39,722 nucleotides of DNA from an uncultured Ruminococcus sp. (GCA_964397225.1 CAYNHY010000002.1:1-39722); one strand, 5' to 3'; positions 10,049 through 39,722 are shown, numbered from the stretch's first letter. The notes: generated from the letters alone by a model not told the origin. Numbers and translations are program-made.

Positions 10049-10108
10049 GCACGTAGGGGGACGCGTATCGCTTGAGCTTCGTTGATTTTTTTAGAGACTG
10101 ATTTGCTA

Positions 10109-10137: not shown

Positions 10138-10190
10138 AAAGCAGTAGGGTCACAAAATGACCGAAAATATTTTCGAAAGAGGAGAAAATA

Positions 10191-17344: not shown

Positions 17345-17386
17345 GACACCGAAGACATCGAAATTTTACGGAAAGGAAGAACTCCC

Positions 17387-18172
17387 ATGACATATCAGGC
17401 GATAAGAGGCTCCGCACAGCCCCGCATCAATGTCGGTCGGGCGGATATTGCACGCGGCGCAATACATAACAGCTCCGCGAAGAACCGAGCTTCCGAGCGT
17501 TCTTCCGCTTCCCGTACACAATACGAAAATGACGCCGCACGCCGTGCCCGAGCAGCAGCGGCACGTGAGGCGGCAGTGCGTCGCGAGCGTGCGGAGCGCG
17601 AAAACGCGCACAGACTCGAAAGGCTTGAGCGCGAGAGAAACGAGGCTCGCCGTCGCGCGCAGGCTGAGGCATATGCGCGCCGGGTCAGAGAGGAGCACAA
17701 GGCAGCACGCCGTGCGGCACGCCGCGCAGAGCGTCTTGAAAGACGCCGTGAGGAGCTTGCACTGAGCCGCCGTGAGATCAAGATCAAGCGAACAAAGCTT
17801 CCGATGAACGTGATACTCGGAATACTGACAGCGGCAGCGCTGCTTTCCGGAGTCGCTTACAGCGCCAATCGCGTTGCGACAAGCTCGGCGCAGCTGTCCG
17901 AGCTGAAGAGCACTCTTGAGGAGCTTGACGGACAGATAGAGAGATACAGACTGAAGCTCGAGGACAAAAACGACCTCGGCGAGATCGAGCAGCTTGCCGC
18001 GGGCGAGCTCAATATGGTCAAGGAGGGCTCGGTCGAGAAGAAATACGTGACCGTGTCCGATGGGGACAGGATCGTTCTCGAGAATAACGAAAGCGATTCT
18101 CCCGAAGGCTACGGCGGCATCCTGTCGGGACTTTCCGCGGCGTTCGACGATATTCTCGACTACATCCGCTGA
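17387..18172 (+). CDS. ftsL: FtsL-position bitopic division protein with about 140-aa Arg/Glu/Ala-rich N-terminal extension
   Basis: 261 aa. RBS GGAAAGGAAG is present. It has a single TM helix (NVILGILTAAALLSGVAY) followed by a coiled-coil segment (SAQLSELKSTLEELDGQIERYRLKLEDKNDL). It occupies the conserved slot between rsmH and the PBP gene. An internal start at M140 (17804) would give a canonical-length FtsL. Confidence 0.7.
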   Translation: MTYQAIRGSAQPRINVGRADIARGAIHNSSAKNRASERSSASRTQYENDAARRARAAAAREAAVRRERAERENAHRLERLERERNEARRRAQAEAYARRVREEHKAARRAARRAERLERRREELALSRREIKIKRTKLPMNVILGILTAAALLSGVAYSANRVATSSAQLSELKSTLEELDGQIERYRLKLEDKNDLGEIEQLAAGELNMVKEGSVEKKYVTVSDGDRIVLENNESDSPEGYGGILSGLSAAFDDILDYIR

Positions 18173-18210
18173 AATAAGCGTATTTGCGACAAAACAGCAT
18201 AGTATGGATC

Positions 18211-18239
18211 GGCGCACTTTTCCGGTGCGCTTTGATTTT
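18211..18239 (+). terminator. terminator-like hairpin between ftsL and the PBP gene
   Basis: The stem GCGCAC-TTTTCCG-GTGCGC (6 bp) is followed by TTTGATTTTC. It may be a partial terminator or attenuator inside the dcw cluster. Confidence 0.4.
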
Positions 18240-18321
18240 CTCGAATATCCCGCGCACACGGCAAATAAAATTGATAGCGGGAGCACCCGCGGACGTGCTG
18301 CGGGAATTACAGGAGAGCAGC

Positions 18322-20703: not shown

Positions 20704-20763
20704 TGCCGCCTTACGGAAGTTTAAGTTTCTTTTACGGTTAATTTAAGCTTTCGGAGGTAATAT

Positions 20764-22293: not shown

Positions 22294-22313
22294 AATGCAG
22301 AAAGGCCGAAAAA

Positions 22314-23810
22314 ATGAGCATTGAACTGAAACTTGTTGCTCCGTCCGTTGAAACGCTGTGCGGCGTTATCGGCGGAACGTGTGAGTGTATTGGAGAGATA
22401 GACACTGCTGTAAAGGTAAGAGGACTTACCACCTCATCCAAAGAGGCTGACCTTAACTGCGTATTTTGTGCCATAAAGGGAGAGCGGGTCGACGGCGCGG
22501 ACTTTATTTCCGACGCCGTGCTCCACGGAGCCGTTTGCGTTATAACGACACACCTTCCGGACAACGCACGCGCATGCGGTAAGCCGTTTTGTGCAATTAT
22601 CGTCGATGACGTGATTGACGCCATAGGTCGCTTCGCGGCGTGGTACCGCAACCATTCGAAGGCAAAGTTCGTTGCCGTCACGGGAAGCGTCGGAAAGACC
22701 ACCACAAAGGAAATGATAGCCTCCGTTGCCGCCTCGCGCTTTAAGACCCATAAGACGCGCGGAAACTACAACAACGAGCTCGGACTCCCGCTCACGATAT
22801 TTGAGCTGGCGCCCGATGACGAGGTGTCGGTGCTTGAGATGGGCATGAGTAATATCGGTGAGATTGAGCACATGTCTCTGATAGCGCGCCCGGATATCGC
22901 GATCGTTACGAATATCGGTACCTCGCACCTTGCCACGCTCGGCTCCCGCGAGAATATCTGCCGTGCAAAGCTTGAGGTGTGCGCCGGAATGACGAGAAAG
23001 GGTCGCGTGATACTCAACGGCGACGAGCCGCTTCTCCGTCGCGGCGGATTAGAAGTTCAGACACGTGTCAGCTATATGAGCGTGTACAACAGAAACGCCG
23101 AATACAGAGCGCTCAATATGAGAACCACCGCCAACGGTATACTGTTTGACATGATATACGATAACCGCGCGCTGACAAACATCGAGGTTCCCGTTCACGG
23201 TCGCCACAATGTTTACAATGCACTCGGCGCTTATGCCGTCGGAACGCTGCTCGGTATCGACGACACGCATATAAGACGCGGTCTGCTTGATTTCGTGGGA
23301 GCGGAAATGCGTCAGAGCATATACGAGCTCGGCGGGCTTACCGTCATCGACGACTGCTATAATGCAAGCCCCGAATCGATGCGTGCCGCACTCGACGTGC
23401 TTTCGTCTATTGCAAAGGGACGCAATGCGCGACCGCTCGCTCTCATCGGAGATATGCTTGAGCTCGGCGAATATTCACGTCTTATGCACGACCAGCTCGG
23501 ACAGTACGTAGCGCAGGTCGGCGTAAAGAAGCTCTTCTGCTACGGTCTGATGAGTGACGTTATCGCAGAGGCGGCAATAAAGAAGGGACTTCGCGCAGAG
23601 AATGTGTGCGTCTGCCTCGACACGCGTGACCCGCAGACAATGGCTGATATGATACTCAGCCTCTACGAGGACGGAGATGTGCTCCTTGTAAAGGCGAGCC
23701 GTGCAGTACACGCAGAGCGTGTTATCCAGTGTATCAGAAAGAAACTCGTAAAGAACAAGACCCGCCGCGCCTCTCACGATGCGACGGAGGACGGAAGGAA
23801 TTCGAAATGA
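22314..23810 (+). CDS. murF: UDP-N-acetylmuramoyl-tripeptide--D-alanyl-D-alanine ligase
   Basis: 498 aa. It has the motif GSVGKTTTKEM and Mur ligase middle and C-terminal domains. Its stop overlaps the mraY start (ATGA). Confidence 0.9.
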   Translation: MSIELKLVAPSVETLCGVIGGTCECIGEIDTAVKVRGLTTSSKEADLNCVFCAIKGERVDGADFISDAVLHGAVCVITTHLPDNARACGKPFCAIIVDDVIDAIGRFAAWYRNHSKAKFVAVTGSVGKTTTKEMIASVAASRFKTHKTRGNYNNELGLPLTIFELAPDDEVSVLEMGMSNIGEIEHMSLIARPDIAIVTNIGTSHLATLGSRENICRAKLEVCAGMTRKGRVILNGDEPLLRRGGLEVQTRVSYMSVYNRNAEYRALNMRTTANGILFDMIYDNRALTNIEVPVHGRHNVYNALGAYAVGTLLGIDDTHIRRGLLDFVGAEMRQSIYELGGLTVIDDCYNASPESMRAALDVLSSIAKGRNARPLALIGDMLELGEYSRLMHDQLGQYVAQVGVKKLFCYGLMSDVIAEAAIKKGLRAENVCVCLDTRDPQTMADMILSLYEDGDVLLVKASRAVHAERVIQCIRKKLVKNKTRRASHDATEDGRNSK

Positions 23811-24808
23811 ATTATAAGCTTATATTTGCCGCTGCGCTTGTGCTGACCTTTGTGCTGACTGTGCTCATCTCGAGACGCCTTATCCCTGCGCTGAAGAGCA
23901 GAAAAATGGGGCAGAAGATCCTTGATATCGGTCCGAGATGGCACAAAAGCAAGGAAGGAACTCCGACAATGGGCGGTCTTGCCTTCATTATATCGTCGCT
24001 TACGGTCGGAGCGGTGCTTTCGGTAATTATTGCGCTGAAGGATGGCGCCGAGACGGCGTGGCCGTTCGTGTTTACGCTCGCGCTCGGACTTGCGGGCGGA
24101 CTTATAGGCTGTATCGACGACGCGGCAAAGCTTCGCAATCAGAGAAACGACGGCTTGACAGCCTCGCAGAAGTTTCTGCTCCAGCTTGTCGCGGCTGCGC
24201 TGTACCTTTTCGGCATGTCGCTTGTCTGCAAGACGGGAACAGCCTTGCATATCCCGTATTTTGACGTAACACTTGAGCTTGGGGTCGGCTATTATGTGCT
24301 GTCGCTCATACTCATATGCGGTGTGATGAACAGCGTAAACCTGACGGACGGCATTGACGGCCTTGCCTCCTCGGTAACGCTCGCCGTCGGCGTTTTCTTC
24401 GCTGTCTGCGGCTTTTTCGGCGGCACGACGGATGCCTCTCTCGTTTCGCTCGGCGCAATACTTATAGGCGCGTGCGCTGGCTTTCTTGTGTACAATATCA
24501 ATCCCGCAAGGGTATTCATGGGCGACACGGGCTCGCTGTTCCTCGGCGGACTTGTCGTCGGCGGGGCGTATATGATGGGTGAGCCGCTTATCGTTATCGT
24601 TTGCGGACTCGTTTATATTATCGAAACGGCGTCGGTAATGCTTCAGGTGACATACTTTAAGCTGACGCACGGAAAGAGACTGTTCAAAATGTCTCCGATA
24701 CACCACCACTTTGAAAAGTGCGGCTGGTCGGAAAACAAGGTCGTTATTGTATTCACCTGTGCGACCGTGTTTTTTTCCGCGATAGCACTGCTGGGAGTCA
24801 TTAAATAA
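23807..24808 (+). CDS. mraY: phospho-N-acetylmuramoyl-pentapeptide transferase
   Basis: The start was re-assigned to MNYKLIFAAALV (ATG at 23807), with GGAAGGA upstream. It is polytopic, with motifs KEGTPTMGG, NLTDGIDGLA and HHHFE. Confidence 0.92.
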   Translation: MNYKLIFAAALVLTFVLTVLISRRLIPALKSRKMGQKILDIGPRWHKSKEGTPTMGGLAFIISSLTVGAVLSVIIALKDGAETAWPFVFTLALGLAGGLIGCIDDAAKLRNQRNDGLTASQKFLLQLVAAALYLFGMSLVCKTGTALHIPYFDVTLELGVGYYVLSLILICGVMNSVNLTDGIDGLASSVTLAVGVFFAVCGFFGGTTDASLVSLGAILIGACAGFLVYNINPARVFMGDTGSLFLGGLVVGGAYMMGEPLIVIVCGLVYIIETASVMLQVTYFKLTHGKRLFKMSPIHHHFEKCGWSENKVVIVFTCATVFFSAIALLGVIK

Positions 24809-24843
24809 GAAAAAGCTTAATTTGAAGGGACGGTGCAGCATGC

Positions 24844-26493
24844 ATGAATAATAACAAGGGCTACGGTCGTGCGGTGCGCCGTCTGTCCGATGCCGCGCCG
24901 TCGCGCGCGACGACTGACGGTGCGCACTCGCGTACATATTCCCCTGCGAGAAATATCAGCTCGCAGAGCACACCGCGACAGCCGCGTGCAAATGCGGGCA
25001 GCCGCCCCGGTGTCACACGAACCTCTTATCGCTCCGACAGCGCTCGCAGAGTGCGTGCGACGCGAGGCGAGAGCGCCGTGTACAGAAATTCGCAGCAAAG
25101 GCCTGCGACGCATACCGCAAGCGCGCGCAATGCCGCTGCACGCTCGAGTGCTCCGGTATTATACGGGAGAGAAGCGAGACTTGCAGAGCGTACCGACCGA
25201 CAGCTTCGCCGCCTTGAAAAAAAGGAGCAGCGGCTTGTCTCGGCAGAGCTTGAGTGGCAGTCCGAGGTCGAGCGAGTTCGCGGAGGCGTCGACAAGGTGA
25301 TGCTTGTCATAATCCTCATCCTTCTCGCGCTCGGCACGCTTATCATATACAGCGCCAGCTATCCTATCGGAATTTCATCCTACGATGACGGAATGTACTA
25401 CCTGAAGCGCCATCTGTTTTTCATGCTTCTCGGAGGCGCGGCGATGTTCGTAGCCTCCTATGTTCCGTATACCTGGTATAAAAAGTGGTTCGGCTTCGCG
25501 CTTTACGCACTCGCGGCGGTGCTTCTCGTTGTAGCGGCATTTGCCGGAGGCAACGACGGCACCGCGGTGTCGCGTTGGATATCGATAGGTCCCGTCCGCT
25601 TCCAGCCGTCGGAAATAATGAAGATAGCCCTTGTCATGCTGCTTGCATGGTATCTCGACAAATATGCCGACCGACTCAAAAGTCACAGAACGGTCGGTGA
25701 GAAAATAGAGCTTCTTCGAGACAAAAGACGCGGCGCCTTCTCAAGCCGCCTGTCAAAGGCGTTTCCGAGGAACGGCGGCACAGACAAACTCGGAACATAT
25801 CTGTACAATACATTTTTCCCGCTGTGCATAGTCGGCGGCTCATGCCTTCTCGTGCTCATAGGAAAGCACCTGTCGGGAACCGTGATCGTCGGCGTTATCG
25901 GACTTGCGATAATGCTTGTCGCGGGATGTCACGTTGCATACACCGTGCTGACAACGCTCGCTGTGGGAGTACCGGTTGTTGCAGTATATCTTATGTCAAA
26001 TTCATACGCCCTGCAAAGGGTGCTTACCTTTACCTCGGATAATGCGGATACGCTTGCCGAGAAGTGGCAGGCTACTCAGGGCGCGCTCGCAATAGGCTCT
26101 GGCGGACTGTTCGGCGTGGGCTTTGCGGAGAGCCGACAGAAGTTCGGCTACGTTTCCGAGCCCTACAACGATTTTATATTCAGTATATGGTGTGAGGAGT
26201 TCGGCTTTATCGGCGCAGCTCTCCTTATAGGGCTGTTCGTTGCGTTTATCTGGCGCGGCTGCGTTATTGCAATGCGTGCGCCTGACAAATATTCGATGCT
26301 TCTCGCCTTCGGTATCACGACACAGGTTGGAGTGCAGGCTGTGCTCAATATGATGGTCGTGTGCGGAGTGCTTCCGACGACGGGAGTCTCGCTCCCGTTT
26401 ATTTCCTACGGAGGAACGGCGCTCGCCGTGCTGATGGCGGAAATGGGAGTCCTTCTTTCGATATCGCGAAGGTCATACAGAAAAACGGCGTGA
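24844..26493 (+). CDS. ftsW: SEDS family peptidoglycan polymerase FtsW/SpoVE with about 150-aa basic N-terminal extension
   Basis: 549 aa as drawn. The conserved core begins near VDKVMLVIILILLALGTLIIYSASY. The C-terminal motifs are PTTGVSLPFISYGGTA. An alternative start at ATG 25300 (GGAGG 13 nt upstream) would remove the extension. Confidence 0.8.
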   Translation: MNNNKGYGRAVRRLSDAAPSRATTDGAHSRTYSPARNISSQSTPRQPRANAGSRPGVTRTSYRSDSARRVRATRGESAVYRNSQQRPATHTASARNAAARSSAPVLYGREARLAERTDRQLRRLEKKEQRLVSAELEWQSEVERVRGGVDKVMLVIILILLALGTLIIYSASYPIGISSYDDGMYYLKRHLFFMLLGGAAMFVASYVPYTWYKKWFGFALYALAAVLLVVAAFAGGNDGTAVSRWISIGPVRFQPSEIMKIALVMLLAWYLDKYADRLKSHRTVGEKIELLRDKRRGAFSSRLSKAFPRNGGTDKLGTYLYNTFFPLCIVGGSCLLVLIGKHLSGTVIVGVIGLAIMLVAGCHVAYTVLTTLAVGVPVVAVYLMSNSYALQRVLTFTSDNADTLAEKWQATQGALAIGSGGLFGVGFAESRQKFGYVSEPYNDFIFSIWCEEFGFIGAALLIGLFVAFIWRGCVIAMRAPDKYSMLLAFGITTQVGVQAVLNMMVVCGVLPTTGVSLPFISYGGTALAVLMAEMGVLLSISRRSYRKTA

Positions 26494-26529
26494 CATTGCC
26501 GCTCAAAGGAAAGGATACGTCAATACACA

Positions 26530-27666
26530 ATGAGAGTTATAATGACGGGCGGCGGCACGGGAGGTCATGTTAACCCCGCGCTTGCCATTGCCGAAACAAT
26601 TAAAAGAAACGAGCCCGATTCCGAGATAATCTTCGTCGGAACGGAGCGCGGTATCGAGAATAAGCTTGTTCCCGCGGCAGGCTTTGAGCTTCGTCATGTC
26701 GACGTTCGCGGTATTCGACGAAGCTTCTCTCCTGCGAATATCCGCGCGTTTTGGCTTGCGCTTACCTCGCCCTACAAGGCAAAGCGTCTTATCCGCGAGT
26801 TCAAGCCTGACGTTGTCATCGGCACGGGAGGCTATGTTTCGTGGCCGGTAGTTAAGGCGGCGTCAATGATGGGCGTGCCCTGCGCGCTCCACGAGTCGAA
26901 TGTGGCTCCGGGCGTTGCTGTACGCATGCTTCAAGGTAAGGTCGACCGCGTGTATCTGAATTTCGAGGCGACGGGTCGCTCGCTTCATTGCCCGGATAAG
27001 CTTCTCCGCGTCGGAAATCCGCTCGCAGGCGATTTCTCGCGCATGAGCCGCAAGGAGGCAAGAGAGGCGCTCGGCATTGAGGGCAAATACAAAAACGTTA
27101 TTCTCTCCTACGGCGGAAGCATGGGAGCGGAGAAGGTCAACGATGCGGTTCTCGAGGTGATGAAGAATTATTCCGCAAAGCACCCCGAGACCCTGCACAT
27201 TCACGCAACGGGCTCGATAGAGTGGCAGATATGCCGCGGACAGTTTGCAAAGGCGGGACTTGACAAATACCCGAACCTTGAGCTTGTCGAGTATATTTAC
27301 GACATGCCGGTGAAGATGGCGGCAGCTGACCTTATAATCTGCCGCGCGGGAGCGCTGACCGTTTCCGAGCTTGCAAAGTGCGGAAAGTGCCCGATATTCA
27401 TACCGTCTCCGAATGTTACGGAGAATCATCAGTATAAGAACGCGCGAGTGCTCGCCGATGCCGGTGCGGCATTTGTGTTCGAGGAGCGACAGCTTGCCGA
27501 GAACAGCGCGATCCTCACGCAGACGGTGGCAGGGCTTATGTCGCCGGAGGGTGAGGCGGAGCGCGCTCAGATGAGCGAGAAAATACGCGCCTTCGCGCTT
27601 GATGACGCAAATCGCCTGATATATAACGATATCAGACGCCTTGTCGACGGCGCGCGACGCAAATAA
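26530..27666 (+). CDS. murG: undecaprenyldiphospho-muramoylpentapeptide beta-N-acetylglucosaminyltransferase
   Basis: 378 aa. It has the motif TGGGTGGHVNPALA and the C-terminal segment ICRAGALTVSEL...PSPNVTENHQ. Confidence 0.92.
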   Translation: MRVIMTGGGTGGHVNPALAIAETIKRNEPDSEIIFVGTERGIENKLVPAAGFELRHVDVRGIRRSFSPANIRAFWLALTSPYKAKRLIREFKPDVVIGTGGYVSWPVVKAASMMGVPCALHESNVAPGVAVRMLQGKVDRVYLNFEATGRSLHCPDKLLRVGNPLAGDFSRMSRKEAREALGIEGKYKNVILSYGGSMGAEKVNDAVLEVMKNYSAKHPETLHIHATGSIEWQICRGQFAKAGLDKYPNLELVEYIYDMPVKMAAADLIICRAGALTVSELAKCGKCPIFIPSPNVTENHQYKNARVLADAGAAFVFEERQLAENSAILTQTVAGLMSPEGEAERAQMSEKIRAFALDDANRLIYNDIRRLVDGARRK

Positions 27667-27689
27667 CCCGAACAAAAGGAAGATTTAAG

Positions 27690-28688
27690 ATGACCGAGAA
27701 ACAGCAAAGCTTCGAACGGGACTTTTACGTCTCGGCTCATGCACGCCCCACTGCGGTCTTCGGCAGCATCGGCAACAACCGACGCTCTTCGGCATTCAAG
27801 AACAGCTCGGACAGCCGCGGAGCGCGCGGCAACGGCACGTCTCGAGGACATACCGCCGAAAACGAAAGGGCGAGAGCACGGCGAGGCGGACGCAAGGTTG
27901 ACGAGGCAAGGCGCAGCGCGGGGGAGCGGAAACGGACGGTACACCGCCGCCGTGCGCTTGTCCTGTTTGCGGTGTGCGTGCTTCTCCTCGCACTGATCGC
28001 GGGAGTGATCTATCGGTTTTTATTCGTTGTAAAATACATAAACATCAGCGGCAGCAGCGTTTATTCCTCCGACGAGATAATGTCGGCGGGAGGGCTTTCC
28101 GAGGGAGTGAATCTTTACTCCTTCCGCTCAAGCACGCTCGAGTCGAGCGTGACCTTCAGGTGTCCGTATATTTCGCATCTGACGCTCGATCGACAGCTCC
28201 CCGATACGGTCAATATAAGCGCGACCGAGGAGACGGCGCGCTATTACGCCGTAATATACGGAGAGTACAAGCTTCTCTCCGACAGCCTTCGCGTGCTCGG
28301 CACGGTAACGCAGGATGCGCTGCCGGAGGGGCTAATAAAGCTTAAGCTTCCGACCGTGAGCTACGCTGTGACCGGGCGGCAGATAGCGTTTGCCTCAGAG
28401 CGACGCATGAGCGACATAAAGCAGCTGCTTTCGGATATCTCGCAGTCGGAGCTTGCCGACAGGCTCAACATTGTCGATGTGCGCGACAAGTATGACGTCC
28501 GTGCGCTGTGCGACGGGCTGAGACTGCTGCTTATCGGCGAAAACGCGGACACGTCGTACAAGCTTCGAGTAGCCGCGCGCGTGCTTGAGGACGAGATGTT
28601 TGCCGAGAACGAAAAAAAGTACCGCGTAGACCTGACCGTGAGAGGAAAAACAGGCGTGCTCGAAATAGACGACGTCGGGCTTGATTGA
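27690..28688 (+). CDS. ftsQ: cell division protein FtsQ/DivIB (POTRA domain) with Arg-rich cytoplasmic tail
   Basis: 332 aa. RBS AAAGGAAG is present. An approximately 88-aa basic N-terminus precedes one TM helix (ALVLFAVCVLLLALIAGVIY), which is followed by a POTRA-like segment (YINISGSSVYSSDEIMSAGGLSEGVNLYSF). It is positioned between murG and ftsZ. Confidence 0.8.
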   Translation: MTEKQQSFERDFYVSAHARPTAVFGSIGNNRRSSAFKNSSDSRGARGNGTSRGHTAENERARARRGGRKVDEARRSAGERKRTVHRRRALVLFAVCVLLLALIAGVIYRFLFVVKYINISGSSVYSSDEIMSAGGLSEGVNLYSFRSSTLESSVTFRCPYISHLTLDRQLPDTVNISATEETARYYAVIYGEYKLLSDSLRVLGTVTQDALPEGLIKLKLPTVSYAVTGRQIAFASERRMSDIKQLLSDISQSELADRLNIVDVRDKYDVRALCDGLRLLLIGENADTSYKLRVAARVLEDEMFAENEKKYRVDLTVRGKTGVLEIDDVGLD

Positions 28689-28833
28689 TGTTATACAAAC
28701 GCATAACAGGCAAAATTAAGTTATGCATGCGCCTAAAACGAGCGTTTTTTGCTCAACAACGTCTGAAATCGCTGACAAATCAAAAAAATTCGCGTCTTTT
28801 TGAGTTTTTGCCTAAAATATTTTTCAAAAGCTC

Positions 28834-28862
28834 TTGAAAAAATCCTGAATTTAGTATATTAT
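28834..28862 (+). promoter_or_regulatory. sigma-A promoter (TTGAAA-17-TATTAT) dedicated to ftsZ
   Basis: TTGAAA at 28834-28839 and TATTAT at 28857-28862, within a 240-nt AT-rich gap upstream of ftsZ. Confidence 0.55.
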
Positions 28863-28928
28863 ATATAGTAAGTAATAATTCGAACCGTAAGCATACCAAG
28901 AAGTAAAAATCTTAAGGAGGCAACTGCA

Positions 28929-30050
28929 ATGCCATTTGAATTTGACGATAACTATCAGAGCAAGGTCAACATAAAGGTCGTCGGCGTCGGCGGCGGCGGA
29001 AACAACGCCATCAACCATATGATTGTGACCAACGTCCGCGGTGTTGACTTCATTTCCGTTAATACCGATAATCAGACACTTCTTCACTCGAGCGCGACCA
29101 TTAAGGTTCCGATCGGTGAGAAGATCACAAAGGGACACGGAGCGGGTGCTAACCCCGAGATCGGTGAGCACGCCGCAGAGGAGAATATCGAGGAGATCAA
29201 GAACGCACTCAGCGGAGCTGAGATGGTCTTCGTTACTGCCGGAATGGGCGGCGGTACGGGAACAGGTGCCGCACCTGTCGTTGCTCGCGTAGCACAGGAG
29301 ATGGGCATCCTTACCGTAGCTATCGTCACAAAGCCCTTCGCATTTGAAGGTAAGAAGAGAATGGAGCAGGCAGAGCGCGGTATCGCCAACCTCAGCAAGT
29401 ACGTTGACTCTCTTATCATAATCCCGAATGAGAAGCTCAAGGAGATCGGTGAAAAGATCACACTTATGAATGCCTTTGCCGTTGCGGACGACGTCCTCAG
29501 CCACGGTGTACAGAGCATTTCAGAGCTTATCAATGTTCCTCAGTACCTCAACCTCGACTTCGCGGACGTTACGACCGTTATGAAGAACGCAGGCTACGCT
29601 CACATGGGCATCGGTGAGGGAAGCGGCAAGGACAAGGCAGAGACTGCGGCAATGAACGCTATCTCAAGCCCCCTGCTCGAGACCACTATCGCAGGCTCGA
29701 TGGGTATCCTCGTCAGCATCACCGCATCTCCCGACATTGAGCTTAATGATATCGACACCGCATCCTCTCTCATCGCGAGCCAGGCTCACGAGGACGCAAC
29801 CGTAATTTGGGGTGTTGCATTCGATCCCGAGCTTGAGGACAAGATGAAGATCACCATCATCGCTACCGGCTTTGACAACAGCAGCGAGATGTTTGAGATG
29901 AAGAAGGGAAACGCTGAGGCGGCTCCCGCAAAGGCTGCCGAGCCCGCAAAGAAGGAAGAGCTTCCCGAGCTTGCGGAATCCAATGTTTCCGACGACGATA
30001 TCTCTGAGATAATCAATATGCTCCGTAAGAGCAAGGAAGCCGGAAGATAA
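28929..30050 (+). CDS. ftsZ: cell division GTPase FtsZ
   Basis: 373 aa. RBS AAGGAGG is present. Motifs are VVGVGGGGNNAINHM and GGGTGTGAAPVVA, and a conserved C-terminal peptide is present (DDDISEIINMLRKS). Confidence 0.97.
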   Translation: MPFEFDDNYQSKVNIKVVGVGGGGNNAINHMIVTNVRGVDFISVNTDNQTLLHSSATIKVPIGEKITKGHGAGANPEIGEHAAEENIEEIKNALSGAEMVFVTAGMGGGTGTGAAPVVARVAQEMGILTVAIVTKPFAFEGKKRMEQAERGIANLSKYVDSLIIIPNEKLKEIGEKITLMNAFAVADDVLSHGVQSISELINVPQYLNLDFADVTTVMKNAGYAHMGIGEGSGKDKAETAAMNAISSPLLETTIAGSMGILVSITASPDIELNDIDTASSLIASQAHEDATVIWGVAFDPELEDKMKITIIATGFDNSSEMFEMKKGNAEAAPAKAAEPAKKEELPELAESNVSDDDISEIINMLRKSKEAGR

Positions 30051-32478: not shown

Positions 32479-33564
32479 ATGAATAATAAGAAGCTTTACA
32501 TAATCAAGATCGGAAGCAGCTCGCTTACCGGGAAAAACGGCGATATTTCGCGTGAGAAAATACAGACTATCGTGCGCCAGGTCGCAGACGTTCGTGACGC
32601 AGGTCACGACTGCGTTATAGTTACCTCGGGCTCGATTGCCGCGGGCTTTCGCGCACTCGGCTACACTACACGTCCAACCTCCGTTGCCGCAAAGCAGGCG
32701 TCGGCAGCCGTCGGACAGGGACTGCTCATGGAGGAGTATGAGAGATTCTTCGCGGAGCGCGGATACGTTTGCGCTCAGATACTTCTCACACGCGGTGACT
32801 TTACAGACAAGCGCAGATACAAAAACGCATTTGCAGCACTCGAGATACTTCTCAGCCGAGGGGCTGTGCCGATAATCAACGAGAACGATACCATAGCCGT
32901 TGAGGAGCTAAGGCTCGGAGACAACGACACGCTCTCCTCGCAGGTCGCCGCAATGCTTCATGCGGACATGCTGATACTGCTTACGGATACCGACGGGCTT
33001 TATACCGCGAACCCCGCAAGCGACCCCACGGCTCGCCATATTCCGACAGTCGACCGGATCACTCCCGAGATCGAGCGCTACGCGGGCGGCGCCGGAACGA
33101 AAAACGGCACCGGCGGCATGATAACGAAGCTTCGCGGAGCGTCCCTTGCGACGCGTGCCGGAGTCCCTGTGTTCATCTGCTCGTCAAAGGATGAAAATGT
33201 TATAACAAACGCGGTTGCGGGAAGCGCCAAGGGCACGCTCTTTAAGGCGGACGGAAGTCTCAGAACGCGCCTCCAGTGGATGGCGTTCTACGCGCCGTCA
33301 AAGGGAAATATTTATGTTGACCGAGGTGCTGCTGAGGCTGTGGCACATCACGAAAAAAGTCTGCTTTGCGCGGGAGTTACCGCGGCGGAGGGGGATTTTG
33401 CAAGCGGAGATGTAGTTCGCATCCTGACGGCGGGAGACCACGTGTGCCTCGGGCGGGGAATTGCGTCATTCTCCAAAAACGAGATATGCGACATGATAAA
33501 CACGGACGACAGAAAAAGCTGTGTCGTTATAAGAAAGGACGACCTTGTTCTCACGACGCTGTAA
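32479..33564 (+). CDS. proB: glutamate 5-kinase (with C-terminal PUA domain)
   Basis: 361 aa. Motifs are IIKIGSSSLT, VIVTSGSIAAG, NENDT and GTGGMITKL. Confidence 0.93.
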   Translation: MNNKKLYIIKIGSSSLTGKNGDISREKIQTIVRQVADVRDAGHDCVIVTSGSIAAGFRALGYTTRPTSVAAKQASAAVGQGLLMEEYERFFAERGYVCAQILLTRGDFTDKRRYKNAFAALEILLSRGAVPIINENDTIAVEELRLGDNDTLSSQVAAMLHADMLILLTDTDGLYTANPASDPTARHIPTVDRITPEIERYAGGAGTKNGTGGMITKLRGASLATRAGVPVFICSSKDENVITNAVAGSAKGTLFKADGSLRTRLQWMAFYAPSKGNIYVDRGAAEAVAHHEKSLLCAGVTAAEGDFASGDVVRILTAGDHVCLGRGIASFSKNEICDMINTDDRKSCVVIRKDDLVLTTL

Positions 33565-33597
33565 GGAAGATATACGAGCGAAAGGAAGCTTTTTAAT

Positions 33598-34845
33598 ATG
33601 AACGAGATACTTGTAAAGCAGGCGCAGAGCGCGAAGACGGCAGCCGGCGCACTTGCGTGCGCGTCAACAGACGAGAAAAACCGCGCGCTCATGCTTATTG
33701 CCGACGCGCTCGAGTCGCGCGTTGACGAGATACTTGAGGCGAATGGCAGAGACGTTGCCGCAGCCGTCGGGAACGGCACCTCCGCGGCGCTTATCGACAG
33801 GCTCACGCTTAACGAAAAGAGAATTGCCGACATTGCACTCGGCGTGCGTCAGGTCGTCGCTCTCCCCGACCCCGTAGGCGAGGTCATCGAGGAGACGACA
33901 AGACCGAACGGTCTTGTGATAAAGCGCGTTCGCGTGCCGCTCGGCGTTATCGGAATGATATACGAGGCGCGCCCGAATGTTACGGTCGATGCCGCTTCGC
34001 TTTCGCTGAAGGCGGGAAGCGCCGTCATGCTTCGCGGAAGCTCGAGCGCCCTTGAATCGAACAAAAAGCTTACCGAGATAATGCGCGACGCGCTCGCAGA
34101 GAGCAGCCTTCCGTGCGACGCGGTGTCGCTGGTCGACGGACGCTCGCACGATGTGGTCGATGAGATGATGTCGCTTCGCGGCTACATTGACCTTATGATA
34201 CCGCGCGGAGGTGCGGGGCTCATCAGACGCGTCGTTGAAAATTGCCGTGTGCCCGTGCTCGAGACGGGAGTCGGAAACTGCCATATTTACGTTGACCGCG
34301 ACGCGGATGCCGAAATGGCTGAGAATATCCTCATAAACGCGAAGACTCAGCGCCCCGCGGTCTGCAACGCCGCCGAGACTCTGCTCGTTCACGCGTCCCG
34401 CCCCGAGCTTGCAGTAAGGCTCTGCGACGCACTTCGCGCCTCCGGCGTTACCGTACACGGCTGCCCGAGGCTTTGTGCCCTTGTTCCCTATGCCGTTCCG
34501 GTCACGGAGAGTGAGCTTGCGAGTGAATTTCTTTCGCTCGATATGGCTGTGAAGCTTGTCGACAGCATAGATGACGCCATCGCGCATATCAGACGCTACG
34601 GCACGGGACATACCGAGGCGATAATCACAAATGACCGCTCGGCGGCTGACAGATTCATTCGCGAGGTCGACGCGGCGGCTGTGAATGTCAATGCCTCGAC
34701 ACGCTTCACCGATGGCTTCGAATACGGCTTCGGCGCGGAGATCGGTATTTCAACACAGAAGATGCACGCTCGCGGCCCGCTCGGACTTCGTGAGATAACC
34801 TCGTACAAGTTCATCGTCGAGGGCACGGGACAGATAAGAAAGTGA
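33598..34845 (+). CDS. proA: glutamate-5-semialdehyde dehydrogenase (gamma-glutamyl phosphate reductase)
   Basis: 415 aa. It is of the aldehyde dehydrogenase fold, with motifs VIGMIYEARPNVT, CNAAETLLVH and ASTRFTDG. Confidence 0.93.
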   Translation: MNEILVKQAQSAKTAAGALACASTDEKNRALMLIADALESRVDEILEANGRDVAAAVGNGTSAALIDRLTLNEKRIADIALGVRQVVALPDPVGEVIEETTRPNGLVIKRVRVPLGVIGMIYEARPNVTVDAASLSLKAGSAVMLRGSSSALESNKKLTEIMRDALAESSLPCDAVSLVDGRSHDVVDEMMSLRGYIDLMIPRGGAGLIRRVVENCRVPVLETGVGNCHIYVDRDADAEMAENILINAKTQRPAVCNAAETLLVHASRPELAVRLCDALRASGVTVHGCPRLCALVPYAVPVTESELASEFLSLDMAVKLVDSIDDAIAHIRRYGTGHTEAIITNDRSAADRFIREVDAAAVNVNASTRFTDGFEYGFGAEIGISTQKMHARGPLGLREITSYKFIVEGTGQIRK

Positions 34846-34855
34846 GGCGAGGTAA

Positions 34856-35665
34856 ATGAAAATCGAAGGAAAGCTCGCCTTTATCGGCGTCGGCTTCATG
34901 GCGGGCGCAATGATAGACGGAATACTCGGCGCGGGACTTATCGCGCCGGAGAATATATACTGCATAAACGACGCCTTCCCCGACGTCGCGAAAAGCGCGG
35001 CGGAGAGTCACGGAATAGCCTGCCGCACGGCGGAGAGCCTTGCGGAGTGCGACACCGTGGTATTCGGGATCAAGCCCCAGGTGCTTCCGGAGGCGCTTTT
35101 GATGTACGGAGAGTATCTTACCTCCGACAAGCTCTATTTTTCGATAATGGCGGGAATATCGACCGCGCGTCTCGAGGATGCGCTCGGCGGCGCACGCGTC
35201 GTTCGCTTTATGCCGAATATGCCGCTGTCGGTCGGACGCTCGGCTACCGTATACGCGCTCGGAAGCGCTGCGGGTGACGCCGAGGCGGCACTTGCGGAGG
35301 CTGTTTTTGCTCCGCTCGGAATAATCAGACGCGTCGAGGAGGACATGATCTCGGCATATACGGCGCTTTCCGGAAGCGGTCCGGCATATATTTGCCGCAT
35401 GGTCGAGTCCATGGCTCGCGCGGCGGTCACGCTCGGAATTCCCGAGGACGCGGCGGAGGCATTTGCTGTGCAGACGCTCGTCGGAACGGCGCAGGTCATC
35501 GATCAAAACGGAATTTCTCCCGCGACCCTTCGTGCGAGAGTTACCTCGAAGAAGGGAACGACGGAGGCTGCGCTCAACTCGCTCAATGCATCCGATTTTG
35601 ACGTGACGGTCGAGGACTGCATGAAGGCATGCCTCAGACGCAGCGACGAGCTTGCAAAGGCGTAA
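34856..35665 (+). CDS. proC: pyrroline-5-carboxylate reductase
   Basis: 269 aa. It begins with the Rossmann N-terminus FIGVGFMAGAM and carries the C-terminal motif VTSKKGTTEAAL. Confidence 0.9.
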   Translation: MKIEGKLAFIGVGFMAGAMIDGILGAGLIAPENIYCINDAFPDVAKSAAESHGIACRTAESLAECDTVVFGIKPQVLPEALLMYGEYLTSDKLYFSIMAGISTARLEDALGGARVVRFMPNMPLSVGRSATVYALGSAAGDAEAALAEAVFAPLGIIRRVEEDMISAYTALSGSGPAYICRMVESMARAAVTLGIPEDAAEAFAVQTLVGTAQVIDQNGISPATLRARVTSKKGTTEAALNSLNASDFDVTVEDCMKACLRRSDELAKA

Positions 35666-35718
35666 GACTTGAGCTTAGTTATCAATTGCCGCCGAACGGC
35701 GGAGAAACGGAGAATATT

Positions 35719-36921
35719 ATGGCAGAAAAATATCCTTTTTCAATGTGGGTGTACAACCCCACGTCGGACTTTACTACCGATGAGGTCGGGGTGTGGAAGG
35801 AATGCGGAATGACAGTTCCGATGACACCCTCGATCCCATGCAGCGAGGAGGGCGTTCGCGCAGTAAAGCCCTTCCTTGACCGCGCAGCGGAGCTTGGAGT
35901 GAAGATGATCGTCAATTGCGCCGGTCTTTCCTACGGAGACCTCAAGTATATCAGCGAGGAGCAGCTTGAACAGAATCTTCGCACAGTATACGAGCCCCTC
36001 AAGGGTCACCCCGCGCTTTACGGCTTCTTCATCGGTGATGAGCCGAGCGATAAGGAGTCGCTTGAGGCAACAGCCAAGTGCTTTGAGATCCATCACCGCG
36101 TAGCTCCCGAGCTGAAAGCATATGTGAACCTTTGCGGCGACACCCCCGAGCTTTCAAATGAGGTTCTCGGAGGTCGCACACTCGAGGAGTACTTCAAGTA
36201 TATCCGTGAGAAGGGCGCAAGCTTTGCAAGCCTTGACCTTTACGGAAGCATGATCAACGAGAAGACTCTCAGAGATGATATTTACTCACTTAAGGTAGTC
36301 GTCGGTGCAGCCGAGAAGGCTGGTCTCGACATTTGGGCGAACACGCTCTCGAGCGCACACTATGCATTCAGAAAGCCGAACTATCACGAGCTTCTCTGGC
36401 AGATAACCGTTCCCGCAGCCTGCGGCTGCCGCGGTAATATTTGGTTCCGTTTCTACGATCGCAAGACCGGACACGAGTACTTCGGCTCTCCTATCGACGA
36501 GTATGGCAATAAGACTGAGGCATACTACGATATGCTCCGCGCGCAGCGCCGTTTTGCCGATCATTACGGCGAGATAATGCCGACGCTTCGCAGAAAGAGC
36601 ACATATATGCTTGGCGACAACATCACCGATGTTTTCCCGCGCTTTAAGGACGGCGATCACGACCTTGTCAAGGTCAGTGCGGTCTGGGATGACATTCTCG
36701 TCAGCTTCTTCGAGGATGACAACGGACAGGAATACATTTGTGCCGTTAACGCAATGACGAAGATACACGGCTCGGTGAATATCGAGTTCGACCCCGAAAA
36801 ATGTGCCGTTCGCGAGGTCACATTCAACGGCGCGGATATCGGAGGAAGCCCTGAATCCGGTAAGGAAAATATCCCGCTGTACGCCGGACAGATGCGCCTG
36901 TTCAGAATAGACAGAAAGTAA
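35719..36921 (+). CDS. hypothetical protein, possibly glycoside-hydrolase-like TIM barrel
   Basis: The start was re-assigned to MAEKYPFSMW (ATG at 35719), with GGAGA upstream. It is 400 aa. The segment YGFFIGDEP resembles clan GH-A strand-4 motifs, but I cannot assign a family from sequence alone. Confidence 0.5.
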   Translation: MAEKYPFSMWVYNPTSDFTTDEVGVWKECGMTVPMTPSIPCSEEGVRAVKPFLDRAAELGVKMIVNCAGLSYGDLKYISEEQLEQNLRTVYEPLKGHPALYGFFIGDEPSDKESLEATAKCFEIHHRVAPELKAYVNLCGDTPELSNEVLGGRTLEEYFKYIREKGASFASLDLYGSMINEKTLRDDIYSLKVVVGAAEKAGLDIWANTLSSAHYAFRKPNYHELLWQITVPAACGCRGNIWFRFYDRKTGHEYFGSPIDEYGNKTEAYYDMLRAQRRFADHYGEIMPTLRRKSTYMLGDNITDVFPRFKDGDHDLVKVSAVWDDILVSFFEDDNGQEYICAVNAMTKIHGSVNIEFDPEKCAVREVTFNGADIGGSPESGKENIPLYAGQMRLFRIDRK

Positions 36922-37002: not shown

Positions 37003-37031
37003 TTGACAAGTTGGGCGAGCGGTGGTATAAT
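37003..37031 (+). promoter_or_regulatory. consensus sigma-A promoter (TTGACA-17-TATAAT) driving the T-box leader
   Basis: TTGACA at 37003-37008 and TATAAT at 37026-37031. Confidence 0.75.
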
Positions 37032-37039
37032 AACGGCAA

Positions 37040-37314
37040 CTTATTCAAATGCGTTGATGGAATTATTCCTCCGCTTTGCCACATTTCAGAGAGTCGGCGG
37101 CAGGTGCGAGCCGATATTGGCGGTGGATGTGAAGTCTCATTTCGGAGCAGAGTCGTCGAATTACAGTAAACGGCTACGGAGGACCCCGTTATCATGGTCG
37201 GGAGCTTGCCTGAGCTCTGACGAGTTGACCGTTTTTCTTGACGGTAAACAGGGTGGTACCGCGAAGCATTTCGTCCCTGAAATCGGATTATCCGATTTCA
37301 GGGCTTTTCTTTTT
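37040..37314 (+). promoter_or_regulatory. T-box riboswitch leader (probable Leu CUC specifier; Val GUC alternative)
   Basis: Elements seen are the AG box AGAGAG (37088-93), the distal-loop-like GGCAGGTGCGAG, the F box CCGTTA (37186-91), and the T-box core AGGGTGGTACCGCG (37250-63). The antiterminator shares CCCT with a 13-bp terminator, CCCTGAAATCGGA-TTA-TCCGATTTCAGGG, plus CTTTTCTTTTT (37275-37314). Confidence 0.85.
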
Positions 37315-37363: not shown

Positions 37364-38748
37364 ATGAACAAGGTCAAAATTGCCGATGCCACGCTTTGCC
37401 GTGAAGACAGAAGCTTCAGCTTTAAGGAGAAGCTTGAAATCATCCGCCAGCTTGATCGCATGAAGTGCGACATTATCGAGCTGCCCGAGATCGCAAACCC
37501 GAAAAGTGATATTCTGATGGTGCGTACAGCGTCATCCTTTGTGAAAAACAGCACGCTCTCCGTCGCTGCGGGAAGCTCCGCCGAGAGCATCGAAAATGCC
37601 GCTGCCGCACTCAGCTCGGCGTCCCGTGCGAGAATTAAGATAACACTCCCCACATCGTCTGTCGGTATGGAGTACTTCATGATGAAGAAGCCCGCCGCAA
37701 TGCTTGAGTGGATCGAAAAGGCGGTAAAGCTTGCCGTGTCTCACGTCGCCGAGGTTGAGTTCTGCGCCGTTGATGCGACAAGAGCCGAAAGGAGCTTCCT
37801 TGACGACGCTATCCGCACGGCAGTTGGCGCCGGAGCGTCGTATGTCAGCGTTTGCGACAGCGCCGCCGAAATGCTCCCTGATGCATTTGCAGCCTTCACA
37901 GAGAGCGTTGCAGCCTGTGCCGGCGTTCCCGTCGGTGCATCCTGCTCCGATAAAAACGGTCTGCCGTAGCCTCCCTTACGATGGCGGCTTGCCGCGGTGT
38001 GTCGTTTGTCAAGTGCGCCGTTGACGGTGAGAGCGCGCAGACCGAGACCTTTGCGACACTTGTCAAAAACTGCGGAGAGAGCTTCGGCATCTCCTCCGAC
38101 ATTACCTATACCGAGCTCCACCGTATCACCGAGCAGCTTCGCCGCATTACCGGAAGCGCAAAGAGCGAGAAGTCGGTGAGCGCACCGTCGGCAGACGAAA
38201 ACGACGGAGTCAGCCTTGATGCTTCCGACACCGTCGAAAGCGTTTCCACCGCTGTCGCACGACTCGGCTACGACCTGTCCGATGAGGACTGCGCCCGCGT
38301 TCACGAGGAGATCGGACGCGTCGGTGAGAAGAAGAGGGTCGGAGGTGCGGAGCTTGAGGCGATAGTCGCCTCGGTAGCGCTCCAGGTGCCCGATTCCTAC
38401 AAGCTTGTCAGCTATGTTGTAAACAACGGTAATATTATCAATTCAAGCGCGCAGATCACACTCGAGCGCGACGGACGCACACTTGTCGGCGTCTCTCTCG
38501 GTGACGGTCCGATCGACGCTGCCTTCCGCGCGATAGGTCAGGTCACGGGAAGCAGCTATGAGCTCGATGACTTCATGATTCGCTCCGTAACGGAGGGTCA
38601 GGAGGCTATCGGAAACGCAGTCGTAAAGCTTCGCTTCGAGGGCAGACTGTATTCCGGAAACGGCGTGTCCACGGACATCGTCGGCGCAAGCATCAGAGCA
38701 TACATAAACGCCGTAAACAAGATCGTTTACGAGGAGCATAACGCGTAA
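37364..38748 (+). pseudogene. LeuA (2-isopropylmalate synthase)-like gene with degenerate active site, intact LeuA C-terminal regulatory domain, and one frameshift near 37963
   Basis: Two track ORFs (37364-37969 and 37981-38748) are collinear with LeuA. ...SCSDKNGL (frame 1) continues as AVASLTMAACRGVSFVKCAVDGESAQTE (frame 2), matching HCHNDLG-AVAN...ING-GERAGN. The second ORF has no RBS. The C-terminal segment GDGPIDAAFRAI...GVSTDIVGASIRAYINAVNK is the LeuA dimer/regulatory domain. This could equally be an intact gene with a 1-nt assembly error. Confidence 0.7.
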
Positions 38749-38766: not shown

Positions 38767-39722
38767 ATGAAGCTTTCTTTTTCAACAAAGGGCTGGCACG
38801 AGTGCAGCTTTGAGGATTTTTGCAACACTGCGCACGACCTCAAGTTCGACGGAATCGAACTGCATAACGTAAACGGTGCTCTCTTTACCGATCGCGACGG
38901 CGCGTTTCACGATTATTCTGCGGCGGCGACACTGCGTATGCTTTATGACCGCGAGCTTACGATCCCCTGTATCGATACTATCTGCGATATTTCCGCAGAG
39001 GGCGTGACTGATGAGGCTCTCGCCGAGACCGAGAGATGCTTTGAAATCGCACGCTTCTTGCACATTCCGTACATTCGCTTCAGAAGTTGCCGCTGTGACG
39101 ATGACGAGCGCGGAGTCGCGCGCGTCGAGGCGTTCATCGAGCAGGTGCTCCCGCGTGCCGAGGAGCTCGGCATCACGCTTCTTCTCGAGACTTCCGGCGT
39201 TTATCGCGACAGCGCACGCCTTTGCGAGACGCTTGACCGCTTCGCAAGCGACAGCGTCGGCGCACTTTGGAATGTTTCCGAGGCATACTTTGCCGAGAAA
39301 GATCCCGAAGTCATCATAAAGAATCTCGGTGCGTACGTGCGCCTTGTACACTTCAGCGATATCGACGCGACCGACGGCGTAGCCGAGTATCGCCTCGCCG
39401 GCGAGGGTGAGCTTCCCGTTCGTGAGATCGTCTCCGCGCTTAGAAGCGTCAACTACGACGGATTCGTTTCGCTCGTCTGGGATCCCGCATGGTGCGAGGA
39501 GCTTGACGACATGGAGACCGTCCTCACACAGTTCCAGAACTATATGCGTCAGTTCGGAGATCCCTCTCAGAACGAGAAGAACTTCTACTACAACGAGACT
39601 CACACGGGTCGCTTCGTCTGGAAAAAAGACGATCTTATCGACCTCACGTTCTCCGAGGTACTCGACCGCATGGTTGAAGATTTTCCCGATCAGTACGCGT
39701 TTAAGTATACAACTCTCGATTA
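38767..39722 (+). CDS. xylose-isomerase-like TIM barrel (sugar phosphate isomerase/epimerase family) fused to the N-terminus of an AMP-dependent (adenylate-forming) ligase; 3' end beyond the window
   Basis: My own translation from ATG 38767 (RBS GGGAGGAG) stays open to the window end: MKLSFSTKGWHECSFEDFCNTAHDLKFDGIELHN...LLLETSGVY...VRLVHFSD...FVSLVWDP..., then ...DLTFSEVLDRMVEDFPDQYAFKYTTLD. That last part resembles the start of acyl-CoA synthetase-type enzymes. It is absent from the ORF track because it has no stop codon in the window. Confidence 0.7.
   Translation, partial: MKLSFSTKGWHECSFEDFCNTAHDLKFDGIELHNVNGALFTDRDGAFHDYSAAATLRMLYDRELTIPCIDTICDISAEGVTDEALAETERCFEIARFLHIPYIRFRSCRCDDDERGVARVEAFIEQVLPRAEELGITLLLETSGVYRDSARLCETLDRFASDSVGALWNVSEAYFAEKDPEVIIKNLGAYVRLVHFSDIDATDGVAEYRLAGEGELPVREIVSALRSVNYDGFVSLVWDPAWCEELDDMETVLTQFQNYMRQFGDPSQNEKNFYYNETHTGRFVWKKDDLIDLTFSEVLDRMVEDFPDQYAFKYTTLD

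Follow-up and report, generated by a model that had tools for sequence, protein, structure and literature searches.

What does a tRNA-sensing riboswitch control when the genes behind it are not the usual targets of such switches? This question is raised by the 3' end of a 39,722-nt stretch of DNA from an uncultured Ruminococcus sp. (GCA_964397225.1, CAYNHY010000002.1:1-39722; the whole stretch is referred to here as the window), where a T-box leader lies upstream of a gene for a LeuA-like protein and a second gene for a TIM barrel fused to an acyl-CoA ligase. The original prediction for this region, made from the sequence of the window, had proposed a T-box for leucine or valine that gates non-canonical genes and is induced by branched-chain amino acid (BCAA) starvation. 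Our analyses indicate that the element is, with very little doubt, a class-I transcriptional T-box riboswitch specific for tRNA-Leu. The genes that it precedes are probably the Leu arm of a system by which Clostridia of the gut and rumen would rebuild BCAA from branched-chain fatty acids.

A T-box leader upstream of the LeuA-like gene

The promoter and the elements of the leader are listed below.

37003 to 37031, plus strand: sigma-70 type promoter by consensus match, with TTGACA at 37003-08, a 17-nt TG-bearing spacer and TATAAT at 37026-31
37045 to 37281, plus strand: T-box leader (Stem I, Stem II, Stem IIA/B, Stem III and antiterminator) by match to RF00230
37051 to 37148, plus strand: Stem I, including the AG bulge and the distal loop, from the Rfam alignment and conserved columns
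37136 to 37139, plus strand: specifier codon CUC (Leu) and 3' purine A, from the Rfam alignment and cross-species comparison
37186 to 37191, plus strand: F-box CCGUUA (CCGTTA in the DNA) in the Stem IIA/B region, invariant across the aligned species
37250 to 37278, plus strand: T-box sequence and antiterminator with the bulge UGGUACC, from the fold
37275 to 37314, plus strand: intrinsic terminator with a 13-bp stem, 3-nt loop and T-run, overlapping the antiterminator, from folding and covariation

The promoter matched the consensus at 12/12 positions (37003-37031). An Rfam scan, which had been proposed as a check on the original prediction, aligned RF00230 to positions 37045-37281 over the whole of the model (1-219), scoring 103.2 bits (E 7e-22) where the gathering threshold is 93, and this T-box was the sole regulatory RNA that the scan returned in the 39.7-kb window. 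All of the elements that had been predicted were found in their places and could be read directly. The AG bulge AGAGAG (37088-93) and the Stem I distal loop GGCAGGTGCGAG (37097-108) are legible in the leader sequence itself, and the 14-nt T-box core sequence AGGGTGGTACCGCG is at 37250-63, where AGGGUGGUACCGCG folds into an antiterminator with a UGGN bulge.

For comparison, orthologous leaders were gathered from 71 species-level genomes and aligned. Folding gave an antiterminator (37250-78) built from AGGG/CCCT plus CGAA/UUCG and having a 7-nt bulge, UGGUACC. The UGGU of the antiterminator bulge is the part of a T-box that pairs with the 3' ACCA end of the tRNA, and it was present in 71/71 species. 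The terminator stem (37275-37303) had a dG of -21.7 kcal/mol and a z-score of -6.7, with 0/200 shuffled sequences being equally stable; it covaried across species (RNAalifold) and has a T-run on its 3' side that ends at 37314. The antiterminator and the 13-bp terminator are mutually exclusive, as had been predicted, because the segment CCCU is common to both.

The architecture of the RNA and its conservation were also seen computationally in the alignment as a whole. Compensatory double changes were found in 30/45 pairs (RNAalifold, 71 species), mostly in Stems I, II and III and in the terminator, and the orthologous LeuA-like gene was preceded by the same leader in 74/79 assessable species-level loci, at a leader-to-gene distance of 67-160 nt with two outliers at 289 and 345 nt. 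The presence of the same leader upstream of so many orthologues, together with the compensatory changes, argues that the leader is not a chance match. No T-box core was found in five assessable loci. Four of these (L015, L019, L037 and L054) are joined to an upstream operon, as is also the case in L002. In the fifth, L026 (5554-6000), the LeuA-like gene is preceded by a separate consensus promoter and by a hairpin resembling a terminator, and the leader may be a degenerate T-box or a different leader.

Two further observations concern T-boxes in these loci. The 5' side of the specifier loop (37060-37066) reads AUUA, near-invariant in this T-box clade, as compared to the AGUA S-turn element of the consensus. 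Additionally, one relative (L083, ~1130-1400) has a further T-box with a UUC (Phe) specifier approximately 4.5 kb upstream of its Leu T-box.

The specifier reads leucine

The original prediction had left the choice between leucine and valine to two overlapping frames on the 3' side of Stem I. The triplet CUC (37136-38), followed by A at 37139, lies immediately 5' of the basal helix UUUC/GGAA, which is the canonical position of a specifier. Across the 71 species this triplet was CUC in 66 and CUG in 5, all of them Leu codons with a synonymous switch included. The overlapping GUC frame (37134-36) was kept in 53/71 species and was otherwise GCC (12), UUC (5) or AUC (1). We conclude that the leader is a Leu T-box and that the Val alternative is excluded, because CUC or CUG is found in 71/71 species while the GUC frame drifts; the leucine part of the prediction thus stood and the valine part did not. 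According to TBDB, CUC is the specifier in 74% of Leu T-boxes. The CUC of the window is presumably decoded by tRNA-Leu with the anticodon GAG.

The first gene encodes a LeuA-fold protein that has lost its catalytic residues

The operon that follows the leader runs to the end of the window and comprises the following features.

37364 to 37969, plus strand: LeuA-like pseudoenzyme, N-terminal part (HMGL-like TIM barrel), with a premature TAG via a frameshift
37961 to 37962, plus strand: 1-nt deletion splitting the LeuA-like gene (GGTCTTGCC in L001, GGTC-TGCC in the window)
37963 to 38748, plus strand: LeuA-like C-terminal part in the +2 frame, comprising the remainder of the barrel, the linker and the LeuA_dimer allosteric domain
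38767 to 39722, plus strand: xylose-isomerase-like TIM barrel fused to an acyl-CoA ligase, leaving the window (orthologues 829-841 aa)

For context beyond the window we used L001, the locus of a relative whose LeuA-like protein (P0001) has 98% protein identity to that of the window. With its reading frame restored, the LeuA-like protein of the window is 461 aa, and intact orthologues are 459-461 aa. It has an HMGL-like domain (PF00682, E 1.4e-19) and a LeuA_dimer domain (PF08502, E 3.4e-30), and its best family matches are all 2-isopropylmalate synthase. The scores of its two halves (105.3 and 128.4 bits) are below all of the NCBIfam LeuA equivalog cutoffs, which range from 532 to 748. Alignment to LeuA of N. 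meningitidis (3RMJ) revealed extensive changes in the active site: RDGEQ is replaced by CREDR and HCHND by SCSDK, so that the HxH metal ligands have become SCS, the histidine of SPIH is G, and the glutamate of the ED motif is likewise replaced. These losses of metal ligands and catalytic residues were common to 15 diverse members of the LeuA-like family, in which alignment columns are on average 76% identical and the C-terminal allosteric domain hardly varies.

The AlphaFold2 model of the LeuA-like protein (pLDDT 75) superposed on the barrel of 3RMJ at 2.3 Å, and its best Foldseek matches were to full-length M. tuberculosis LeuA, including the leucine-bound structure 3FIG. Judged from its sequence and predicted fold, the protein is a LeuA-fold pseudoenzyme, at least for Claisen condensation, that has retained its regulatory domain. 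This agrees with the earlier description of the first gene as a LeuA paralog lacking catalytic residues. In databases, members of the family are named 'hypothetical protein' by NCBI, and one homologue is named '2-isopropylmalate synthase' by JGI. No leuB, leuC or leuD was found near the gene in L001-L004 and L085-L091, the loci whose neighbourhoods were annotated with Pfam; for the 80 GTDB loci the screen used the reference gene set only.

The family also has four invariant cysteines, C12, C164, C194 and C237 (P0001 numbering), three of which are at or beside former active-site positions of the barrel. These cysteines could bind a metal or an Fe-S cluster at a new site, and the LeuA-like protein would then be repurposed rather than dead.

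The second gene encodes a TIM-barrel/acyl-CoA-ligase fusion

The second gene had been predicted to be a fusion of a TIM barrel to an adenylating enzyme, and this description was borne out by its xylose-isomerase-like domain and by the ligase present in orthologues. The model of the TIM domain (pLDDT 87) had as its Foldseek neighbours generic xylose-isomerase-like barrels only, including the isomerase Art22, ketose 3-epimerases and the dehydratase AsbF, at a TM of ~0.75. The window holds approximately the first 30 residues of the ligase domain, and the ligase motifs were examined in the L001 orthologue. Orthologues of the fusion have a complete AMP-forming ANL ligase (AMP-binding and AMP-binding_C) with motifs A3, A5, A7, A8 and A10, which in L001 read TSGTTGFPK, YGQTE, TGD, GRLKDMI and PMNAAGK. 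The closest ligase family is PRK12583, a generic fatty-acid CoA ligase, at 672 bits and below its cutoff of 832. Nearly all homologues of the fusion that one search returned were labelled 'partial', probably because a 318-aa query biased the ranking; the notion that the fusion gene is a repeat or assembly-breaking element was rejected, as full-length copies of 829-841 aa occur on long contigs.

The fusion gene was directly 3' of the LeuA-like gene in 84/84 loci. The gap between the two ranged from -35 to +25 nt in 80/80 species loci, often with an overlap, and this spacing suggests translational coupling. A gene for an Amidohydro_2 protein with an intact HxH...H...H...D motif then follows the fusion in 50/60 assessable loci; it is missing from ~1/6 of species, including this lineage. 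The fusion is the last gene of the operon in L001, where it is followed by unrelated genes for a WG-repeat protein, an AraC-type regulator and a pyruvate formate-lyase-like protein. The standard leu/ilv cluster that would have made the locus an ordinary one, had it lain past the edge of the window, is therefore lacking after the fusion in L001. One lineage (L002:1202-2152) has a stand-alone AP_endonuc_2 TIM-barrel gene (316 aa) 3' of ligase 1, one of the acyl-CoA ligases described below, which suggests that a TIM barrel and a ligase cooperate beyond the Leu arm as well.

Three consecutive T-boxes in relatives

The LeuA-like family is very large, comprising at least 6,569 protein clusters at E <= 1e-100, and the listed members were all from uncultured Clostridia. 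When species-representative genomes were scanned, at least 514 of them had a relative, and the best 80 were Oscillospirales metagenome-assembled genomes (Acutalibacteraceae, Ruminococcus and Oscillospiraceae), mainly from the gut of ruminants or other animals. A search for a cultured host of the Ruminococcus-type LeuA-like protein found uncultured metagenome-assembled genomes only.

In 24/51 assessable loci, a gene for IlvE or for a 2-oxoisovalerate:ferredoxin oxidoreductase (VOR) was found at most 1 kb upstream of the module, and in other loci these genes were farther off. The upstream gene set comprised an acyl-CoA ligase fused to a helix-turn-helix (HTH) domain and a cupin, a CbiA/ParA-like P-loop protein, a ferredoxin, a three-subunit VOR and IlvE. 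Both of the latter enzymes score above the cutoffs for their families: 543.7 against a VorB cutoff of 399 for the alpha subunit of VOR, and 480.7 against 307 for IlvE.

Four loci (L087, L089, L090 and L091) were read with 10-kb flanks, and each had three consecutive T-boxes with one ligase behind each. The first T-box has the specifier AUC (Ile) and precedes ligase 1, which is MbcS-like. The second has the specifier GUA (Val) and precedes ligase 2, also MbcS-like, together with VOR and IlvE. The third has the specifier CUC (Leu) and precedes the LeuA-like/fusion module. Locus L088 has the Val and Leu units, and in L002 the Val T-box has the specifier GUC. Computational comparison of gene order across relatives thus shows ligase, VOR and IlvE encoded together, with a T-box for each of Ile, Val and Leu; neither VOR nor IlvE can be seen in the window. 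These arrays refine what had been predicted about induction. The leucine signal is supported, and induction by BCAA starvation in general is not, since separate Ile and Val T-boxes gate the sister units in relatives.

The array ligases have additional features. The two HTH-cupin ligases, ligases 1 and 2, match the MbcS model best. The Ile- and Val-gated ligases (L087:1-5222; L089, L090, L091 and L002) are 754-765 aa with an N-terminal XRE-type HTH domain and a cupin, so that, going by predicted domains, an enzyme is joined to a sensor module like those of transcription factors. A 220-aa CbiA/ParA (NUBPL-like) P-loop protein (L087:5249-5911 and orthologues) is always encoded between ligase 2 and the ferredoxin-VOR genes, and may be a factor for Fe-S maturation or a carrier factor for VOR.

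A proposed route to leucine

We hypothesize that the leader and the module act together as follows. Transcription would begin at the consensus promoter and, when tRNA-Leu is charged, the 13-bp terminator would form and stop RNA polymerase at ~37314. When tRNA-Leu is uncharged, its anticodon would pair with the CUC in Stem I and its free ACCA end with the UGGU bulge, and these contacts would stabilise the antiterminator so that RNA polymerase could read into the operon. Such read-through by uncharged tRNA is established for T-boxes generally and is supported here by the predicted structure. The ligase induced by leucine starvation would then activate isovalerate, or a related C5/C6 acid, to its CoA thioester; a VorB-type VOR would reductively carboxylate isovaleryl-CoA (or the related thioester) to 2-oxoisocaproate; and IlvE would transaminate 2-oxoisocaproate to leucine. 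The LeuA-like protein would bind leucine and serve as a regulatory subunit or a scaffold.

In this scheme we infer which acid is the substrate, in which direction flux runs and what the pseudo-LeuA does. The anabolic direction is favored because the ligases are AMP-forming and because induction by uncharged tRNA is a response to starvation. Purified MbcS, an acyl-CoA synthetase of S. aureus, activated 2-methylbutyrate and isobutyrate and barely activated isovalerate, with a Km > 500 µM (PMC10026030). A separate type of ligase for the leucine precursor, as is seen in the array, fits with this. Leucine synthesis by isovalerate carboxylation is established physiology in rumen bacteria (PMC7356843). 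A leucine-sensing or scaffold role is proposed for the pseudo-LeuA because its gene abuts or overlaps the ligase gene and its allosteric domain is kept. That it serves as a regulatory subunit at all is speculative, and we put it forward tentatively; the specific version, in which it would be the leucine-sensing subunit of an isovalerate-CoA ligase and the operon would be under dual control by tRNA-Leu charging and free leucine, is equally tentative.

We consider the combination of a Leu T-box with a salvage arm for leucine to be fairly probable. If it is correct, the earlier claim that the T-box gates non-canonical targets holds for the gene families and does not hold for the regulatory logic, as the likely role of these genes would still be amino-acid supply, by salvage.

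Several observations weigh against such a role. The only tRNA within the window reads Thr (UGU), and no cognate tRNA-Leu(GAG) is encoded there. In this lineage the module is 3' of proBAC and does not adjoin VOR or IlvE. The LeuA-like gene is frameshifted in the window, and the module may be defective here. The substrate of the ligase is not given by homology, at least as far as its assigned family goes, PRK12583 being generic and the match below its cutoff. For leucine binding, searches of PDB sequences with the regulatory domain of the LeuA-like protein yielded no usable alignment. Finally, the TIM domain and Amidohydro_2, which are apparently active, would have no role in a simple scheme of isovalerate activation, and may leave room for more complex chemistry or another substrate.

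Alternative explanations

The frameshift in the LeuA-like gene raises the possibility that, in this genome, the module is a recent pseudogene and the T-box gates a defective operon. The gene was called as two open reading frames (37364-37969 and 37981-38748), and the switch in frame, which was absent from the original prediction, is located within AAAACGGTCTGCCG. One T is missing at 37961 as compared to L001, in a non-homopolymer context (TT to T), and a TAG stop follows 8 nt downstream. It is also the sole uncompensated frameshift in conserved coding sequence over the ~12 kb held in common with L001 at ~92% DNA identity, which speaks for a real lesion. Against this, the two halves are still 98% identical in protein sequence to L001 at that level of DNA divergence, no further lesion is seen, and neither the T-box nor the promoter is damaged. 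Given this pattern, the missing T is either an error of assembly or consensus calling or a mutation of very recent date. We regard a pseudogene as a minor, though appreciable, possibility. It would be compatible with a leucine-salvage function of the family as a whole.

A second alternative is that leucine, 2-oxoisocaproate or isovaleryl-CoA is made from some other precursor in several steps, via the TIM domain and Amidohydro_2. In that case isovalerate would not be the acid that the ligase activates, and the ligand of the pseudo-LeuA might resemble isopropylmalate. This would give employment to the TIM domain and Amidohydro_2, both of which retain invariant catalytic-type residues, and would be in keeping with the frequency of Amidohydro_2 (50/60 loci), with non-oxidative decarboxylases being among its PDB relatives and with the isomerase/epimerase/AsbF-like nature of the TIM domain. 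PDB sequence searches with these two domains gave remote or uninformative matches only. However, the absence of Amidohydro_2 from ~1/6 of species, including this lineage, marks it as accessory; no neighbouring gene points to a candidate precursor; and the parallel with the Ile and Val arms favors a simple fatty-acid substrate. We therefore consider another precursor unlikely.

The activated acid could also have a different destination. The module may supply an isovaleryl-CoA primer for iso-odd branched-chain membrane fatty acids when leucine is scarce, in a manner similar to MbcS-type ligases, which play such a part in S. aureus (PMC10026030). The window lineage, having the module without adjoining VOR and IlvE, is consistent with this, as is an acyl-ACP thioesterase gene near the module in both the window and L001. 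In many genomes, however, the genes for IlvE and VOR adjoin the module, IlvE itself is under the sister Val T-box, which is sensible only for amino-acid synthesis, and the retained leucine-type allosteric domain fits end-product control by leucine. A lipid-priming function thus seems improbable, and leucine salvage remains our preferred interpretation.

An ordinary Leu T-box before a canonical leuA, serving standard leucine biosynthesis as in the ilv-leu operon of Bacillus, was rejected, since the catalytic residues are lost and the scores lie below the equivalog cutoffs. T-boxes upstream of leuA are already known (PMC2494555), and the two domains, the family matches and the single JGI name would all agree with a canonical leuA. 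Yet all of the metal ligands and catalytic residues are lost family-wide, the scores are far under each cutoff, the NCBI label is 'hypothetical protein', leuB, leuC and leuD are lacking in the annotated neighbourhoods, and the gene is always paired with the TIM-ligase fusion; it is very improbable that this is a standard leuA. Lastly, we give almost no credence to a response to tRNA-Val, or to Val and Leu together, even though GUC overlaps the specifier region and is retained by 53/71 species and tRNA-Val shares the discriminator A73 with tRNA-Leu, because GUC gives way to codons for other amino acids (GCC, UUC and AUC) and has no following purine adjoining the helix, and because the same arrays have a dedicated Val T-box upstream, whereas the helix-adjoining frame stays Leu in 71/71 species even where CUC has become CUG.

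Other features of the window

Directly upstream of the T-box operon lies proBAC (32479-35665, plus strand), and a 430-aa open reading frame at 35629-36921 had no Pfam match. The window also contains the dcw cell-division cluster from MraW to FtsZ (16406-30050, plus strand), two large SLH-domain surface proteins (7114-12878, plus strand), a sigma-E-like factor with SpoIIGA (353-1958, minus strand) that marks a sporulating Firmicute, and the tRNA with the anticodon loop UGU (Thr) at 75-146 on the minus strand.

Comparison with known systems

The riboswitch itself is a normal member of a known family. The regulon, in which a pseudo-LeuA and a TIM-ligase fusion would form the Leu arm of an array of three T-boxes, is to our knowledge new: no description of the module was found in a full-text literature search, which covered few subscription journals, and an earlier description is possible. 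The Leu specifier of the riboswitch labels a very large unannotated family (at least 6,500 clusters and at least 514 species-level genomes) as one concerned with leucine supply, and, taken with the T-boxes for Ile and Val nearby, it outlines a testable and complete gene set for making BCAA from isobutyrate, 2-methylbutyrate and isovalerate. The formation of BCAA from branched-chain acids has been known in rumen physiology for decades and bears on fibre digestion, feed supplementation and cross-feeding in the gut. If the bolder reading with a leucine-sensing pseudo-LeuA is true, the array of three switches would provide the genetic basis, so far missing, of the requirement for, and use of, branched-chain volatile fatty acids by ruminococci and their relatives among gut Clostridia.

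Leu-specific transcriptional T-box leaders (RF00230) include those of the ilv-leu operon and leuS of Bacillus subtilis. The leader described here resembles them in its Stem I (AG bulge, distal loop and specifier), its Stems II, IIA/B and III, its 14-nt T-box and UGGN bulge, and its competing terminator and antiterminator, and uncharged tRNA-Leu would likewise switch on leucine supply. It differs from them in the genes it gates, which are a pseudo-LeuA and a TIM/ligase fusion rather than leuS, ilv-leu or a transporter, and in having AUUA instead of AGUA on the 5' side of the specifier loop. The pseudo-LeuA in turn shares with LeuA (1SR9, 3FIG and 3RMJ) a two-domain fold of HMGL-like and LeuA_dimer domains and the conserved motifs of the allosteric domain. 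Unlike LeuA, it is without the Arg, Asp and Glu of RDGEQ, HxH and further active-site residues, losses that were established by computational alignment, and leuBCD do not accompany it in the annotated loci.

MbcS of S. aureus is an AMP-forming short branched-chain acyl-CoA synthetase that salvages exogenous acids and feeds lipid synthesis (PMC10026030). The ligases described here are also AMP-forming, and array ligases 1 and 2 match the MbcS model best. In contrast, the window ligase belongs to a PRK12583-like subfamily, is fused to a TIM barrel and is T-box controlled, and MbcS is not T-box controlled as far as PMC10026030 states.

In a wider sense, the proposed pathway has a precedent in the physiology of the rumen. 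The classical work of Allison and Bryant, cited in PMC7356843, reportedly described how rumen bacteria form BCAA from branched-chain volatile fatty acids by reductive carboxylation. The order of steps, from acid to acyl-CoA to 2-oxoacid to amino acid, would be the same here, as is the habitat, the Oscillospirales concerned being of the rumen and hindgut. The earlier work was physiological, in contrast to a set of T-box-gated genes with a pseudo-LeuA, which was not found described in the literature searched.

A final comparison concerns the pseudo-LeuA. HisZ, an inactive paralogue of HisRS, is the regulatory subunit of the ATP phosphoribosyltransferase HisG. There is no homology between the two systems, and complex formation and leucine binding by the pseudo-LeuA are proposals, so that the resemblance is by analogy only. 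In each, however, a dead paralogue from the same amino-acid system would be reused as a ligand-sensing subunit of the enzyme at the entry to the pathway, and the module is possibly a new case of a dead enzyme being reused as a regulatory part.

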